DNA of 64,000 bases from Fidelibacterota bacterium (GTDB lineage Bacteria > Fidelibacterota > UBA2242). The stretch's first letter is position 1; every line of letters starts with the position of its first letter. This document shows positions 4,798 to 42,544 of the stretch, one piece after another. Location of the stretch: contig JBNGDF010000009.1 of NCBI GenBank assembly GCA_049975265.1, positions 1-64,000 of the forward strand, in the 5' to 3' direction. The position numbers and the translations under genes were made by a program. The notes under the pieces are model-generated. The model saw only the letters and a list, made by a program, of their open reading frames with translations, was not told the DNA's origin and made no database searches.

Positions 4798-4881
4798 TGC
4801 CCGAGGCGAGACTCGAACTCGCACCTCCTTAAGGAGACTAGACCCTGAACCTAGCGTGTCTACCAATTCCACCACCCGGGC
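4798..4881 (-). tRNA. tRNA-Leu (anticodon CAG)
   Basis: Minus strand GCCCGGGTGGTGGAATTGGTAGACACGCTAGGTTCAGGGTCTAGTCTCCTTAAGGAGGTGCGAGTTCGAGTCTCGCCTCGGGCA: cloverleaf with long variable arm; CCA not encoded. Confidence 0.97.
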
Positions 4882-9936: not shown

Positions 9937-10251
9937 ATGCTGGAATTCACCGATAGTAATTTTGAACAGGAAGTGCTTCAGGCGGATTTGCCTGTTCTGG
10001 TTGATTTCTGGGCAGCCTGGTGCATGCCCTGTCTGAAAATAGCGCCGATCGTGGAGGAGCTGGAGGAAAAATACAAGGGCAGGATGAAGTTCGGGAAAGT
10101 GAATGTTGAAGATAATCCCATGTTTCCGCAGAATTACGGAATCCGCAGCATCCCGACACTGCTGATCTTTAAAGACGGTAAGGTTTATAGCCAGATTGTC
10201 GGTGCAGTGCCTCGTCATAAATTGGAGGAGAATATTCAGGCGGCGTTATAA
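9937..10251 (+). CDS. trxA: Thioredoxin
   Basis: VLVDFWAAWCMPC, YGIRSIPTL; RBS AAGGAG. Confidence 0.95.
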   Translation: MLEFTDSNFEQEVLQADLPVLVDFWAAWCMPCLKIAPIVEELEEKYKGRMKFGKVNVEDNPMFPQNYGIRSIPTLLIFKDGKVYSQIVGAVPRHKLEENIQAAL

Positions 10252-10440
10252 AATATCAAAATTCAGCAGTCCTGTAAAAAATCCCCGATACTTCGGAAAT
10301 TTTCTATAAAATTAAAAAATAGTTGATTTTAATCAAATGAATCATGCGTTAGGGGAATTCATTAATCATCAGCCTGACGCTCTTGAAAATAACTGCATAA
10401 ATACCTTTCTTGTAACGGCAAATCATTGTAAATTTCCCCC

Positions 10441-10548
10441 GGTTTTTTACCTGAGATGAAGGATTAATCTAACATCAAGGGGTGTGAAAAAGACAACGAT
10501 CAGAATCGGCGTAATTTCCATCCCTTGTCACAACGGATGGATTTTTTT
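10441..10548 (+). promoter_or_regulatory. Putative attenuator leader of the hydrogenase maturase operon
   Basis: Terminator TCCATCC(10517-23)/GGATGGA(10535-41) plus T7 directly before ATG 10549; competing helix CAAGGGGTG(10476-84)/CATCCCTTG(10519-27); upstream hairpin 10443-10491. Confidence 0.6.
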
Positions 10549-10797
10549 ATGGAAAAACGGGTTCACACCACAACCATCACGGTTTATGACCGGGATGCGT
10601 CCTATCAGCAGGTGGGCGAACTGCTGCACAGCCACGCAAAGAGTATCCTTTTGCGCGTCGGCTATCCTCTGGAAAAGCACAATGCGGCGATCATTTTTCT
10701 GATCCTGGAGATGACCACCGATGAACTGGGTGCGCTGACCGGAAAACTGGGTCAGATTCCAACAGTCAGAGTGAAATCCACAACCCTGAAAGTATAG
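10549..10797 (+). CDS. TM1266-family putative iron-only hydrogenase system regulator (ACT-like fold)
   Basis: MEKRV...VGELLHSHAKSILLRVGYP...ELGALTGKLGQIPTVRVKS; first gene before hydE/hydG/hydF; start taken as ATG 10549. Confidence 0.88.
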   Translation: MEKRVHTTTITVYDRDASYQQVGELLHSHAKSILLRVGYPLEKHNAAIIFLILEMTTDELGALTGKLGQIPTVRVKSTTLKV

Positions 10798-10802
10798 CGC
10801 TG

Positions 10803-11867
10803 ATGAGGTTATCCGAACGGAAAATCCGCAATTATCTGGATGGCAAGGATGATGCCGCTCTATTCGCTGAAGCCGACAGGGTTCGGCGGGAGGTATTTGG
10901 TGAGGGCGTCTATCTGCGCGGTATTCTGGAATTTTCCAATTACTGTCGCCGGAATTGTCTCTATTGCGGCTTGCGGCGGGATAACCGGCAAATCGTACGC
11001 TATCGTCTCAGCACTGCGGAGATTTTGGATGGTGTGGCTGAGATCGCCGCCGCTGGAGTAAAGACGGTGGTTCTACAGACCGGTGAAGACCCTTTCTATT
11101 CTGCTCGCGAAATTGCCCGGATCATCACCGCGATCAAGTCACGCTATGAGATCGCCGTTACTCTGTCACTGGGCGAACGCAGCCGGGAGACCTATCGGCT
11201 CTGGCGGGAAGCCGGAGCAGACCGTTATCTGCTGCGCATGGAGACATTCAACAGGGATAATTATGCCCGGGTACGCCCGCAACGTGTCTGGGAAAAGCGT
11301 CTGGAGTGCCTTGAGAGCTTGCGGGAGATGGATTATGAGGTCGGTTCGGGTATCATGGTTGGGCTGCCCGGTGATGAATTTGAAGATATTGTCACAGCTG
11401 TCCGGGGGTTGACGAGATTGCAGCTGGATATGATCGGCACAGGACCCTTTATCGCCCATCCCCGGACACCGTTTGCCGATCAGCCCGACGGCAATATTGA
11501 TTTGACACTGCGGGTTTATGCGCTGCTGAGAATCCTGAATCCGCTGGCAAATATCCCGTCAACAAGCGCCATGGAAAGCGCCAGACCGGGAGGGAGAATG
11601 CGGGGTTTACAGGTGGGTGCCAATGTGATTATGCCGTCGTTTACACCGCCGCGGGTGCGGGAATTATACAATATTTATCCGGGCAAGAACGTCCAGCGGG
11701 ACATTGATGATAACTATTCATCTGCATTGGCAATGATCGTAAAAGCCGGGTACCGGGCGGATTTTGCAAGGGGGGATTCGCCGGTGAAAAGTAATAAGGA
11801 TAAAGTTCAAAGTGTAAAGGTGAAAGTGGAGGGTAGGGTTATTAGTGAGAATGAGCCGGCACGATGA
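10803..11867 (+). CDS. hydE: [FeFe]-hydrogenase H-cluster radical SAM maturase HydE
   Basis: LRGILEFSNYCRRNCLYCGLR, GADRYLLRMET, GPFIAHPRTP, GANVIMP, YNIYPGK; operon context. Confidence 0.93.
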   Translation: MRLSERKIRNYLDGKDDAALFAEADRVRREVFGEGVYLRGILEFSNYCRRNCLYCGLRRDNRQIVRYRLSTAEILDGVAEIAAAGVKTVVLQTGEDPFYSAREIARIITAIKSRYEIAVTLSLGERSRETYRLWREAGADRYLLRMETFNRDNYARVRPQRVWEKRLECLESLREMDYEVGSGIMVGLPGDEFEDIVTAVRGLTRLQLDMIGTGPFIAHPRTPFADQPDGNIDLTLRVYALLRILNPLANIPSTSAMESARPGGRMRGLQVGANVIMPSFTPPRVRELYNIYPGKNVQRDIDDNYSSALAMIVKAGYRADFARGDSPVKSNKDKVQSVKVKVEGRVISENEPAR

Positions 11868-11918: not shown

Positions 11919-13442
11919 ATGTCTGAATTAACGGTACAGGAATGGGTAAAACAGGTCATCAAGCAGGATGAGATCGATAAGTACCTGATTGGCGGTAAGG
12001 ATTTTATCGATGGGGAGGTCATTAAAAATGAATTGTCGGCGCATCGAAAGCCGGACAGGCAGCAGGTCTGCGACATTATCGCGAAATCGCTACGGATCGA
12101 ACGTCTGGAGCCGTGGGAAACGGCAGCACTGCTGAATGTAGAGGACCCGGATATCTGGGAAGAGATGTATGCGGCGGGTCTGGCGGTCAAGCGCAAGGTT
12201 TATGACAACCGGATTGTCTTTTTTGCACCGCTCTACTGCAGCAATCTCTGCGTGAATAATTGTGCCTACTGCGGTTTCCGCTATGATAATAAAGACGAAA
12301 AGCGCCGGATACTCTCGATGGATGAAGTGCGGCAGGAGACTGAGGCTGTGATTTCCGAAGGGCATAAACGCATGATCGTCGTCTATGGTGAACATCCCCG
12401 TTCCGATGCCGAATATATCGCCCGCACGATTGAGACCATTTATGGTGTGAAAAAGAGAGCCGGCCGCGGTTTTGGTGAAATTCGTCGTGTGAATATCAAC
12501 GCCGCACCAATGTCTATTGCCGACCTGAAAAGACTCTGGAATGTGGGCATCGGCACCTATCAGGTCTTCCAGGAAACCTATCATAAACCTACGTATGCGG
12601 CGCTTCATCCGGCGAACACGATCAAGGGCAATTATCGCTGGCGCCTGTATGCCCTGCACCGAGCGATGGAGGCAGGCATTGATGATCTGGCGATCGGTGC
12701 GCTGTTCGGGCTTTATGACTGGCGTTTTGAGGTGATGGGATTGTTGTATCACGCCATTGATCTGGAACGGCAATTCGGAATCGGTCCCCATACGATCTCC
12801 TTTCCCCGCATGACGCCGGCATCGGGCTCTTTTGTGAGTACTCATTCAAAATATCTTGTAAACGATGAGGATTTCAAAAAGTTGGTCACCGTCCTGCGGC
12901 TCTCGGTACCCTATACGGGATTGATTATCACCGCTCGAGAGCGAGCGAATTTACGCCGGGAAGTGATCAGAGTCGGCTGTACCCAGACCGACGCCTCCAC
13001 GAAAATCGGTATTGGTGGCTACACCGAAGCGCTGAAAAAACTCAGTCAGCTGGAAAAGTCGGACCAGGAAATCGATAAACAGCAGTTTACCCTCGGTGAT
13101 ACCCGCCGTCTGGATGATGTGGTACGGGAACTGGCGAAGATGGGCATGATTACATCGTTCTGCACCGCCGGATACCGCTGCGGACGAACCGGGGATAAAA
13201 TCATGGGCTTGCTGAAGAGCTGCACCGAGGGCAAATTCTGCAAACTGAACGCCGTACTAACATTTCGGGAATATCTGGACGATTATGCCTCTCCGGAGAC
13301 AAAAGCCGTCGGCGAGCAGCTGATCGAAAAGGAGCTGGCGGAGATTCGTCAAATTCCCTTTTTCCGGAAAGGAACTCTTCTGCAGACTTTTGAAAAGATG
13401 TATCGGGACACGCTGAATGGAAAACGGGATGTATATATTTAG
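11919..13442 (+). CDS. hydG: [FeFe]-hydrogenase H-cluster radical SAM maturase HydG
   Basis: FAPLYCSNLCVNNCAYC, GTYQVFQETYH, GPHTISFPR, C-terminal auxiliary-cluster Cys motif CX5CX19C. Confidence 0.95.
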   Translation: MSELTVQEWVKQVIKQDEIDKYLIGGKDFIDGEVIKNELSAHRKPDRQQVCDIIAKSLRIERLEPWETAALLNVEDPDIWEEMYAAGLAVKRKVYDNRIVFFAPLYCSNLCVNNCAYCGFRYDNKDEKRRILSMDEVRQETEAVISEGHKRMIVVYGEHPRSDAEYIARTIETIYGVKKRAGRGFGEIRRVNINAAPMSIADLKRLWNVGIGTYQVFQETYHKPTYAALHPANTIKGNYRWRLYALHRAMEAGIDDLAIGALFGLYDWRFEVMGLLYHAIDLERQFGIGPHTISFPRMTPASGSFVSTHSKYLVNDEDFKKLVTVLRLSVPYTGLIITARERANLRREVIRVGCTQTDASTKIGIGGYTEALKKLSQLEKSDQEIDKQQFTLGDTRRLDDVVRELAKMGMITSFCTAGYRCGRTGDKIMGLLKSCTEGKFCKLNAVLTFREYLDDYASPETKAVGEQLIEKELAEIRQIPFFRKGTLLQTFEKMYRDTLNGKRDVYI

Positions 13443-13468
13443 GTTTATTGGAATGTAAGAGTTCGTGT

Positions 13469-13780
13469 ATGGGCACTATCGAGAAAAGCAGGACAACGGT
13501 CGCGCGGATCCGAGATATCTGTTTTCAGAAGAAAGGGACATTGCAGTATAAATTGCTGAGCATCGCAAGGGAACTGGCAGATTACCTTGAGACGGAGGTC
13601 TATTTTTGCAAGATCAGGGGCAGACGCTGGTCTTTTGTGGCAGGGAGTGGTGACGTGCTTTGTGGTTCATACCGACTGCGATTGTCCGATAAATGGGGAT
13701 TGATTTCTGAACGGAAGATCACACCAAGCCACTCTGTTCAGCTCATTATCAGCATGATACAAGAGATGCTAACAGGCTGA
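13469..13780 (+). CDS. Hypothetical protein inside the hyd maturase operon
   Basis: Fills the hydG-hydF gap on the same strand; globular composition (VYFCKIRGRRWSFVAG); start ATG 13469 or TTG 13448. Confidence 0.65.
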   Translation: MGTIEKSRTTVARIRDICFQKKGTLQYKLLSIARELADYLETEVYFCKIRGRRWSFVAGSGDVLCGSYRLRLSDKWGLISERKITPSHSVQLIISMIQEMLTG

Positions 13781-13886: not shown

Positions 13887-15155
13887 ATGATTAAAACACC
13901 CAAAGGACTGCGGCTGCATATCGGCATTTTCGGACGCCGGAATGTCGGCAAATCGTCATTGATTAATGCCCTGACACGGCAGAACGTATCGATCGTATCG
14001 GATGTGGCGGGAACCACCACAGATCCGGTGGAAAAACCGATGGAGCTGTTGCCGATTGGACCGGTAATTTTCATCGATACGGCAGGTATTGATGATGACA
14101 GTATTTTAGGAGTCATGCGAACGACACAGACAAAAAAGATATTTGACCGTACCGACCTGGCGATTATCGTTACTACCGGCAGAGGCTGGGGGGCTTTTGA
14201 AGAGGAGCTGCAGAAAGAGTTTGATCATCGCGCTATTCCATTTATTGTTGTTTTTAATAAAAGCGATCTGGAAACTCCGGACCCTGCCATTGCAAAAAAA
14301 TTAACGGGAAATAATATTCTCGCTGTCAGCACAATCGCAACGGATTCAACGGGGCTGTTTGACTTGCGCGAGGCGATTATCCGGAAAACACCGCCTGATA
14401 TCATCAATGCGCCGAAAATTATCGGTGACCTGATCAAGCCGGGTGAACTGGTAGTTCTGGTGGTACCGATTGATAAAGAGGCGCCGAAAGGGCGGTTGAT
14501 TTTGCCACAGGTCCAGACGATTCGGGAGATTTTGGACAGTAATGCCTATTGCATTGTGGTCAAAGAGAATGAATTGCGCACGGCGCTGCAGAAATTGAAG
14601 ACCAAGCCGGCGATGGTTGTTACCGACTCCCAGGCATTTATAAAGGTTGCCGCTGACACGCCGGGAGATGTGCCGATGACCTCCTTTTCGATTCTTTTTG
14701 CCCGGATTAAAGGCAATCTCGCAGAGTTGGTGCGCGGCGCGATGATGATTGACACGCTCCTGCCCGGCGACCGGGTTTTAGTAGCCGAAGCCTGTACCCA
14801 TCACCCGATTACCGACGATATCGGTACGGTGAAAATTCCCCGCTGGCTGAATCAGTATGTGGGCGGCGAGCTGCGTTTCGGTCATGCGCAGGGCCATGAT
14901 TATCCCGACGATCTGGAGAAGTACCGGCTGGTTATTCATTGCGGCTCCTGTATGTTCAACCGGCGGGAGATGCTTTCACGAATGATGCATGCCAAGCGGG
15001 CGGGTGTACCGATCACGAATTATGGTCTCACGATAGCCTATACACTGGGTATTTTTGAGAGGGCTCTGGAACCCTTTCCGGAGATTTTGGAGATGTACCG
15101 TCGCGAAAAAAACAGGGACTTCCCTGCGAAAGTCCCTGAGATGAATACTGAGTAA
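13887..15155 (+). CDS. hydF: [FeFe]-hydrogenase H-cluster maturation GTPase HydF
   Basis: GRRNVGKSS, GTTTDPV, DTAG, NKSD, APKGRLILPQ, EACTHH...HCGSC cluster motif. Confidence 0.97.
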   Translation: MIKTPKGLRLHIGIFGRRNVGKSSLINALTRQNVSIVSDVAGTTTDPVEKPMELLPIGPVIFIDTAGIDDDSILGVMRTTQTKKIFDRTDLAIIVTTGRGWGAFEEELQKEFDHRAIPFIVVFNKSDLETPDPAIAKKLTGNNILAVSTIATDSTGLFDLREAIIRKTPPDIINAPKIIGDLIKPGELVVLVVPIDKEAPKGRLILPQVQTIREILDSNAYCIVVKENELRTALQKLKTKPAMVVTDSQAFIKVAADTPGDVPMTSFSILFARIKGNLAELVRGAMMIDTLLPGDRVLVAEACTHHPITDDIGTVKIPRWLNQYVGGELRFGHAQGHDYPDDLEKYRLVIHCGSCMFNRREMLSRMMHAKRAGVPITNYGLTIAYTLGIFERALEPFPEILEMYRREKNRDFPAKVPEMNTE

Positions 15156-15169
15156 CCGGTCAGCCGGTA

Positions 15170-15352
15170 CTATTCCTGCGATTCTTCCACTACCGCATCC
15201 CTGGCATATTTGATGACCTGCTCTACCTGGCGGATGCAATCTTCCTTTGAATCAAAGCCCATTCCCGATACACCGACGATTTCCTGATCATCGGTTTTCA
15301 GGCGCCAGCGCCACTGATCGGCTTTATCGATATACAACTGCAAAATGGACAT
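15170..15352 (-). CDS. DUF1508/YegP (UPF0339)-family small protein
   Basis: LYIDKADQWRWRLK...IVGVSGMGFDSKEDC; RBS GGAG upstream. Confidence 0.8.
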   Translation of the reverse strand: MSILQLYIDKADQWRWRLKTDDQEIVGVSGMGFDSKEDCIRQVEQVIKYARDAVVEESQE

Positions 15353-15364
15353 GATTAATTGCTC

Positions 15365-16396
15365 CTAACGTTTCTTAAAACTTTTGATGGCTTGCATATC
15401 TTCAAGGTCGATTTTGTTCTGGGATTTCGCCAGAATGGAGGGATCATACAGCTGGGCGACCCAGAGATAATATTTGGCGTCCTCTTTCCCCAGTTTTTTA
15501 TAGATTAAATAGGCTTGCAGGTAACCTTCGGCAACCTTGAGTCGGTCGTTTTTACTGAGTTTTTGATAGCTGCCTTCCAGTGCGGGAATCAGCAATTCGA
15601 TACCCAACCACAAAATGTCCGGATTTCGGATCTTTGGGGTATTGGCGTTGTAGATATTGGGCCAGAGAAAGGCGTCGGAATAGTAGTCGTCCGCCAGATC
15701 CCAGAGCCGGTCACCTTTGACGACGGTGTGATAGATATCCATGGGAGTTGGTTTCGGAGTTCTCTCAAGTTCGGGGGATGTAACTTCGGTTTCCAGCTCT
15801 GTTGCTTCGGGTTCTTCTGCAATGTCTGGTGCCGGTTCGACGGGAGGCGAGGGTAGAATCGGTTCTGGCTGGACCTCTTCCGGTACGTCGGAAATGATCT
15901 CCAGCGCTTCCGGCTCGGGTTTGGATTTATCCCGCAGTGACAGCAGAATTATCAGGATGATGATAATTGCCACGGAACCGATGGATGTGATCAGAGCCCA
16001 GTTTGGTCGTTTCCACTTTTCGGGCTCGGATGTAAATGACGATTCGCGCATCAGCGGCTGAACATCATCAGGATGCTCGGGCAGATTCTCCTCGATGATT
16101 TCTTCGATTTCCTTCGTCTCTTCGGGCTTCTCTTCAGGCTCCGGTTCCGGTTCCGATGCTTCTATCGGTTCTTTGACAGATTCCGGGGCTTCCCGGTGAA
16201 CTGTGAACTCCTCTTCGGTTTCATAAATGCGCACCTCAGAGATATCGGGGAGTTCCCTGGCGGTGTTGAGGTCGTCCAGACACTCTTCTTTTGTGTCGAA
16301 GCCTTCGCCGGAAACAGCGATAATATCGCCTTCGTCATTCCGGAGACGCCAGCGCCACTGACCGCCCTTGTCAATATAATATTGAAATACTGCCAT
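15365..16396 (-). CDS. DUF1508 domain + acidic linker + TM helix + LysM domain protein
   Basis: N-terminal YYIDKGGQWRWRLR...SGEGFDTKEEC; TM WALITSIGSVAIIIILIILLSL; LysM HTVVKGDRLWDLADDYYSDAFLWPNIYNAN...NPDILWLGIELLIP. Confidence 0.85.
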   Translation of the reverse strand: MAVFQYYIDKGGQWRWRLRNDEGDIIAVSGEGFDTKEECLDDLNTARELPDISEVRIYETEEEFTVHREAPESVKEPIEASEPEPEPEEKPEETKEIEEIIEENLPEHPDDVQPLMRESSFTSEPEKWKRPNWALITSIGSVAIIIILIILLSLRDKSKPEPEALEIISDVPEEVQPEPILPSPPVEPAPDIAEEPEATELETEVTSPELERTPKPTPMDIYHTVVKGDRLWDLADDYYSDAFLWPNIYNANTPKIRNPDILWLGIELLIPALEGSYQKLSKNDRLKVAEGYLQAYLIYKKLGKEDAKYYLWVAQLYDPSILAKSQNKIDLEDMQAIKSFKKR

Positions 16397-42175: not shown

Positions 42176-42248
42176 GGGGCTGTAGCTCAGCTGGGAGAGC
42201 GCAGCGTTCGCAATGCTGAGGTCGTGGGTTCGATCCCCATCAGCTCCA
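42176..42248 (+). tRNA. tRNA-Ala (anticodon CGC)
   Basis: GGGGCTGTAGCTCAGCTGGGAGAGCGCAGCGTTCGCAATGCTGAGGTCGTGGGTTCGATCCCCATCAGCTCCA; G3:U70 pair; CCA not encoded. Confidence 0.97.
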
Positions 42249-42271
42249 CTGATCTTTGATGAGACACCCTA

Positions 42272-42544
42272 TGGCTATGCTACACGGGGAGCCAGCGGTG
42301 CCCTGTAACCTGCAAACCGCTATAGCAGGGTGGAAGCCAGGCAGCGGGTCATGTTTTTGGTTATTTCGTTGTGATGTGCAGCGATGACACTTTCCATTTT
42401 GCGCAATAAAAGGTTGGCAAACCCCGTCAGGCCCGGAAGGGAGCAGCGGTAGCCGGTTCTTTTATGTGCCGCAAAATACCCGAAAGCGAGCCCGCAGTCA
42501 TAACGGAGTAGTGAAAAACGGATTCAATGCCTGGTGCATAGCCA
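42272..42544 (+). ncRNA. ffs: Large bacterial SRP RNA (with Alu domain)
   Basis: Closing stem TGGCTATGC/GCATAGCCA; Alu-like GGGGAGCCAGCGGTGCCCTGTAACCTGCAAACCGCTATAGCAGGG; helix 8 TCAGGCCCGGAAGGGAGCAG; directly upstream of dnaX. Confidence 0.93.

Follow-up and report, generated by a model that had tools for sequence, protein, structure and literature searches.

A multi-phylum leader RNA predicted to act with TM1266 in shutting off H-cluster maturation genes

The window analysed here, i.e., the whole 64,000-nucleotide stretch of DNA from a Fidelibacterota bacterium, contains a leader (positions 10441-10548) flanked by a thioredoxin gene on one side and an operon for [FeFe]-hydrogenase maturation on the other, which is almost certainly a genuine, uncatalogued cis-regulatory RNA of several bacterial phyla. 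The overall explanation, which is favoured with moderate confidence, is that the leader constitutes an RNA switch that, when bound by the TM1266 protein, shuts off this H-cluster maturation operon. A search of Rfam 15 at the gathering cut-off returned no match at the leader, the best scores over 10200-10700 (E 0.66-9.7) all being far below cut-off, and the statement in the initial annotation that no T-box, TPP, SAM-I or cobalamin aptamer is present is thus upheld. No description of the RNA, of a function for TM1266 or of H-cluster import was found in the literature, in which motif catalogues available only as supplements or by subscription could hold the element.

The operon is encoded on the forward strand and starts with a gene for an 82-residue TM1266-family protein, a predicted RNA-binding repressor (10549-10797; TIGR03959, PF21699; PDB 2nzc), followed by those for the H-cluster radical SAM maturases HydE (10803-11867; TIGR03956) and HydG (11919-13442; TIGR03955), a 110-residue open reading frame (ORF) between hydG and hydF without a Pfam or NCBIfam match (13448-13780), and the H-cluster maturation GTPase HydF (13887-15155; TIGR03918). 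Each of the four named products passes its curated cut-off, which bears out the earlier assignment of hydrogenase maturation genes downstream of the leader, and a group A [FeFe] hydrogenase is encoded elsewhere in the same genome. An ORF similar to the 110-residue one is found at the equivalent place in genome G005. As a side observation, this ORF is related to unnamed Atlas clusters from Thermotogota and Bacillota at 0.92-0.94, with weak GAF-like leads below 0.9, and in the G005 operon (L061) the small ORF is separated from hydF by a short remnant, presumably resembling the start of aspartate ammonia-lyase, of which the window's operon is free. Further features of the window are two adjacent genes on the minus strand (15170-16396), each with an HVO_2922-like domain at its start and one of them fused to a LysM-like region, as well as a tRNA adjoining the large SRP RNA (42176-42541) and a second tRNA (4798-4881), as identified with Rfam.

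Architecture and conservation of the leader RNA

The 111-nucleotide leader has a minimum free energy of -28.1 kcal/mol (z = -2.33), which was equalled by 3 of 200 shuffles; its fold is mildly unusual by itself and, taken together with its conservation, far beyond chance. A predicted -10 promoter hexamer of the TAnAnT type (10429-10434, forward strand), which is present 15-25 nucleotides 5' of the core hairpin described below in 18 of 29 relatives, predicts a transcription start near 10441, upstream of helix B, as the initial annotation required; a consensus promoter scan called no site near the leader, this hexamer included. An FNR/CRP-type perfect palindrome upstream of the leader (10323-10336) was rejected as a regulator site, as the genome contains eight such palindromes versus approximately ten expected and it was not seen in relatives.

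The three helices proposed in the initial annotation were all located as written: helix A (8 bp including one U.G, 10443-50 with 10484-91), helix B (9 bp including one G.U, 10476-84 with 10519-27) and helix C (a 7-bp stem, 10517-23 with 10535-41). Their pairing, and that of the core hairpin, was counted in 26 Marinisomatota leaders selected by position (alignment A4); these alignment-based counts replaced a per-sequence helix-length shuffle control, which was dropped as helices of at least 7 bp occurred in 45% of shuffles. Helices B and C had been expected to be conserved in relatives, and indeed B, the predicted antiterminator of the ON state (10476-10527), is paired in 89.7% of cells with two two-sided changes, while C, the predicted intrinsic terminator (10517-10548), is paired in 95.6% with nine two-sided changes (0 of 500 shuffles). 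Helix A as drawn is not the conserved, presumably sensing, part of the leader: its outer pairs, which represent a variable extension (10443-10491) of the core hairpin, are formed in just 64.9% of cells, whereas the hairpin inside it (10450-81) is paired in 99.6%. B had been thought to exclude both A and C, and while B does have five nucleotides in common with C (10519-23), its overlap with the outer arm of A amounts to a single base (10484); instead, B disrupts P1 (GGG at 10479-81) and one P2 pair of the conserved core.

Terminator C has a G+C-rich stem (-11.3 kcal/mol) immediately followed by a run of seven U residues (10542-48), as is characteristic of intrinsic terminators, and the ATG of the TM1266 gene follows at 10549. 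A U-run is present after the stem in 24 of the 26 relatives, and the 3' arm of the stem (10535-41) likely contains the ribosome-binding site. The loop of C spans 11 nucleotides, with three more pairs possible within it, and a simple terminator scan did not call C because this loop is too long for that scan.

The core hairpin (10450-10481, forward strand), a predicted binding site of 32 nucleotides, is composed of stems P1 (10450-52/10479-81), P2 (10455-58/10473-76) and P3 (10461-63/10468-70), with two 2x2 purine-rich internal loops that each possess a U.G closure. It consists of two copies of one motif, YCU-RM-N4-RR-GGR, which pair with each other and thereby render the hairpin two-fold symmetric. 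Of 61 related genomes, 33 were found to have TM1266; the leaders of 30 of these loci were compared, and 29 contain the core, the remaining one being interrupted by a contig end. Within the position-selected set no covariation of the core was observed, its variation occurring solely via G.U with the exception of one change; since all changes but this one keep the pair through G.U, they mark an RNA on this strand. A comparison of 49 distinct cores spanning four phyla (Marinisomatota, Cloacimonadota, Ignavibacteria and Bacillota) gave pairing in 98.2% of cells and 41 two-sided changes versus 6.7 in shuffles, a count that is inflated because the rows were selected partly for pairing. The apical spacer ranges from 3 to 20 nucleotides and self-pairs when long, while the central four base pairs vary freely in Bacillota, in complementary pairs.

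Distribution of the motif and its predicted switching

The exact core pattern is present in 29 of the 401 genomes of the phylum, as opposed to none for a reversed control. Across GTDB it was found at 47 loci, 35 of which precede TM1266 (in Marinisomatota, Cloacimonadota and Ignavibacteria), the remainder being four orphan or contig-end copies and eight chance matches in unrelated DNA. A covariance model (R1), for which the leader represents the single match in its own genome (E 2.2e-9, this sequence being part of the model), returned matches in 16 of 101 Bacillota genomes. Nine of these matches were new, one of them a chance match inside a gene and the other eight located in leaders of hydG, hydE, TM1266-hydE or an ECF S-component gene, in genomes where TM1266 is mostly part of an unrelated operon; targeted Bacillota scans added further hyd- and importer-type leaders, some of them tandem.

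A number of side observations were made on placement. In several Bacillota (L135, L136, L145, L147, L153, L157, L158) the TM1266 gene is not linked to hyd genes and forms part of a cluster running from a divIVA-like to an ileS-like gene (names assigned from sequence), and some of these bacteria carry the motif in front of hyd genes at another locus. The promoter and core also occur together as orphan copies, with neither an antiterminator partner nor TM1266, in G005 (L061, L062) and in a KSB1 record (L107); one of them stands 2 kb 5' of the genuine operon, from which it is separated by two unrelated genes, as if the leader had been duplicated by insertion.

The predicted binding helix, antiterminator and terminator are mutually exclusive and conserved in relatives, as expected of protein-dependent attenuators of the PyrR, TRAP, HutP and CAT/RAT kind. 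The G-run that ends the core would either close P1 or pair downstream as antiterminator B, which would occupy five nucleotides of the terminator 5' arm. In the window's leader, the fold with B has a calculated energy of -28.1 kcal/mol versus -25.1 for core plus terminator, and the ON state is accordingly predicted to be the default by approximately 3 kcal/mol; since B is the lowest-energy state, a gain of a few kcal/mol in core stability would switch the operon off. As formation of the core frees the terminator, the bound state is predicted to be OFF, and because the terminator 3' arm carries the likely ribosome site, the block could affect transcription as well as translation. It is very probable that the leader does act by termination or by preventing translation. 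In the proposed mechanism a TM1266 oligomer would bind the 32-nucleotide core, hold it shut and block the antiterminator, upon which the terminator with its ribosome-site hairpin would form and TM1266-hydE-hydG-hydF would be turned off. This would probably happen when the supply of the H-cluster diiron cofactor, or of a late precursor, is ample.

Output designs differ among leaders while the core stays constant, and all of them would yield OFF on core formation. In the window's leader a predicted terminator overlaps the ribosome site, certain Bacillota leaders (L144, L148, L161) have a terminator well upstream of it, others (L025, L026, L070) possess a ribosome-site hairpin without a U-run, and in a fourth design (L028-L030, L041) P1 itself covers the ribosome site. 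Of the leaders that were folded, roughly half are calculated to be OFF already in their free state, although these energies are indicative only, since start-codon choice took upstream in-frame codons for several rows.

Regulated genes, signal and binding partner

Six Ignavibacteria records have the switch in front of TM1266 and a gene for a TonB-dependent receptor in place of hyd genes, and the five of these genomes that were tested all encode an [FeFe] hydrogenase and none of them hydG or hydF. Among 151 Ignavibacteria genomes (46 with a group A hydrogenase, 14 with hydG and 34 with the receptor family), the receptor is present in 31 of 32 that have the hydrogenase without hydG, in 3 of 14 with both and in none of 105 without hydrogenase, and at 18 of 30 loci it is followed by an EamA permease gene. 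An RpoB tree was built for 66 genomes, comprising the 46 that encode the hydrogenase and 20 of the 105 that do not; on this tree, the receptor tracks the hydrogenase in 6.7 of 7 independent pairs with none opposite (p ~0.016), while for receptor against loss of hydG the kinship-corrected comparison gave 3.3 of 5 pairs in the same direction and none opposite, which is not significant, the pairs being too few. Most of the receptor loci in the Ignavibacteria class of G401 (L254-L283) have neither TM1266 nor the RNA switch. The window's own genome, that of a cofactor producer, contains no full-length orthologue of the TonB receptor.

An SsuA-like ABC binding protein, seen behind the switch and TM1266, is encoded by 24 of 101 Bacillota genomes, all of them hydrogenase-positive: 14 of 28 with hydrogenase without hydG, 10 of 51 with hydG and none of 22 with neither. 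SsuA/NMT1-like ABC transporters behind the switch or TM1266 were noted at L168:7068-9611 (G633), L234 (G635), L170:8267-10980 (G576) and L301-L325, and a third candidate importer, an ECF S-component gene, immediately follows a motif copy in which P1 masks the ribosome site (G598, L180:1544-2035). The genomes of this import survey are drafts, at least 85-90% complete, so that single absences may be assembly gaps.

The distribution of the receptor and the ABC protein is the pattern expected of product salvage transporters and suggests salvage of the H-cluster cofactor. The cargo suggested for these importers is the diiron subcluster or one of its late precursors, but it could also be something else that hydrogenase users need, and the switch likely controls the supply of [FeFe]-hydrogenase cofactor by synthesis or, probably, by import. 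Given that the regulon consists of maturases in some genomes and of importers in others, the signal would be the diiron cofactor or a late precursor, rather than SAM, tyrosine, cysteine or free iron as put forward in the initial annotation; the chances that the cofactor is indeed sensed, through the NikR/ACT-like fold of TM1266, are judged to be even. The most far-reaching proposal is more tentative, falling slightly short of that: TM1266 would be an RNA-binding cofactor sensor with the hairpin as its operator, and the cofactor a shared, vitamin-like metabolite made by HydEFG producers and imported by hydrogenase-bearing bacteria without maturases through the TonB receptor and EamA permease, or through an SsuA-like ABC or ECF system. 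In the available text of one report, most hydrogenase-bearing archaea and some eukaryotes are described as being without maturases, an alternative pathway is proposed, and the enzymes of such hosts are stated to accept synthetic cofactor (PMC11216029). How organisms with [FeFe] hydrogenase but no maturases obtain active enzyme becomes testable here, and the regulon names concrete candidates for the importers. Furthermore, a widespread family annotated as a 'putative regulator' gains a proposed function and a testable target, an uncatalogued RNA family is added, and there would be a first explanation of how cells adjust H-cluster maturation to demand; if true, this would be relevant to the cycling of hydrogen in anoxic communities as well as to engineered whole-cell hydrogen production.

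That TM1266 binds the RNA in response to something other than the cofactor, i.e., by autoregulation through its own level only or by sensing iron, sulfur or apo-hydrogenase, is considered unlikely, even though 35 of the 47 GTDB-wide matches have TM1266 as the next gene downstream and the protein is without obvious ligand residues. Joint induction would also suit such a signal, TM1266, hydE and hydG of Thermotoga neapolitana being co-induced ~6- to 7.5-fold by CO2 according to the available text of one study (PMC7039931). However, level-only feedback leaves unexplained the motifs that precede hydG, hydE and the ECF gene when TM1266 is in an unrelated operon, while an iron signal would be expected to drive maturases and importer in opposite directions, whereas the sign of the switch is the same for both. 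A Rex site at hydG and a TM1266-like gene is described for Clostridium thermocellum in the available text of a further study (PMC8457756).

TM1266 consists of a lone ferredoxin-like domain, the nearest folds to which are the metal-binding domain of NikR and ACT domains, and this fold comparison agrees with the ACT/ferredoxin-like fold without a DNA-binding domain that had been suggested initially. Across 37 sequences no conserved His or Cys was found, the invariant residues being R36, G38, P40, G65, L67 and G68, and the crystal structure (PDB 2nzc) contains four chains. The core is probably the binding site of this protein, the suggestion in the initial annotation that TM1266 binds the leader being the reading favoured by the distribution of the motif; the simplest account is that a two-fold symmetric RNA is read by a protein oligomer that is symmetric too.

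Binding by TM1266 is likelier than the alternative in which the core is a riboswitch aptamer for the diiron cofactor, an iron-carbonyl intermediate or SAM, and TM1266 merely a co-regulated accessory or carrier protein, which we regard as improbable. The loop nucleotides of the core are highly conserved while its expression platforms are interchangeable, as would be typical of a riboswitch, and certain Bacillota leaders (L149, L230, L239) contain tandem copies. Control of both synthesis and import genes by one element is the usual pattern of riboswitch regulons, and the motif precedes genes of both kinds. Against this, the core has only 10 bp, its two-fold symmetry would suit a symmetric protein oligomer, and its central base pairs vary freely in Bacillota. 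Moreover, the RNA was not found independently of the protein: where TM1266 is missing, the motif was found at none of 26 receptor loci, 13 Ignavibacteria hydG loci and 6 Bacillota hydG loci.

All 16 Bacillota genomes with a model match carry TM1266, often far from the motif, as compared to 48 of the 101 overall, and the motif was not found at the hyd loci of the six hydG-positive, TM1266-negative Bacillota, one of whose leaders ends at a contig end; five of these six genomes were also searched in full, with no motif found. Weak model matches in TM1266-negative genomes were discarded as lying within genes or being half motifs. In Ignavibacteria, where 1.5 kb upstream of each receptor locus was scanned, the motif precedes the TonB receptor at all 4 loci that have TM1266 and at none of the 26 that do not, and it was found at none of the 14 hydG loci, 13 of which are TM1266-negative. 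Every motif-bearing genome of known status thus has TM1266, a correlation limited by the sensitivity and training of the model: as it was trained on TM1266 leaders, the link is partly built in, and since genome-wide, at E 0.05, it matched just 15 of the 45 Bacillota genomes that have both TM1266 and hydG, absence of the motif from TM1266-negative genomes is weak evidence alone. Some TM1266-positive genomes (G561, G647) and the hydG locus of G526 are without a detected motif, and for these three reasons the correlation amounts to support, not proof, of TM1266 as the binder.

A last reading, that the motif is a 14-bp direct-repeat DNA operator for a transcription factor with the downstream hairpins being incidental, is highly improbable, for although the halves of the core do form a direct repeat, usually 18 bp apart and just 3' of the predicted start, the spacer varies in length and self-pairs when long, the central bases change in complementary pairs with one-sided changes of the G.U type, B and C are kept with compensatory changes, and TM1266 is without the DNA-binding domain of NikR.

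Comparison with known regulatory systems

The regulon is reminiscent of vitamin salvage systems, i.e., the B12 riboswitch with BtuB and the TPP riboswitch with ECF and ABC importers, in that one OFF element precedes either synthesis genes or TonB, ABC or ECF importers, and the importers are concentrated in non-producers. It differs from these in that the leader matches no B12, TPP, SAM or other riboswitch, and in that the pathway is H-cluster maturation, for which no published salvage route was found.

NikR controls metal supply for hydrogenases, and its metal-binding domains are the closest fold neighbours of TM1266 after TM1266 itself (TM-score ~0.83). TM1266 differs in having neither a ribbon-helix-helix domain nor conserved His or Cys residues, and in that its presumed target is an RNA leader.

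In PyrR attenuation, three mutually exclusive helices are involved, the protein encoded by the first gene is thought to stabilize an anti-antiterminator and so cause termination, and both synthesis and transport genes are regulated. The leader described here resembles this system (RF00515) in its exclusive helices, in an operon whose first gene encodes the candidate binder, and in the control of synthesis and transport. It is nevertheless not a member, scoring 16.7 bits versus a cut-off of 54 with only the terminator part aligned and the binding loop unaligned, and the RNA core, protein fold and pathway are all different.

The RAT element, a hairpin of ~30 nucleotides with two similar internal loops, overlaps a terminator and is read by the symmetric CAT-domain dimer of BglG, LicT and SacY, binding of which leads to read-through. 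The leader shares with RAT a symmetric two-loop hairpin that overlaps a terminator system, without being a member of that family; unlike RAT, binding is predicted here to result in termination, and the TM1266 domain is ferredoxin-like rather than of the CAT type.
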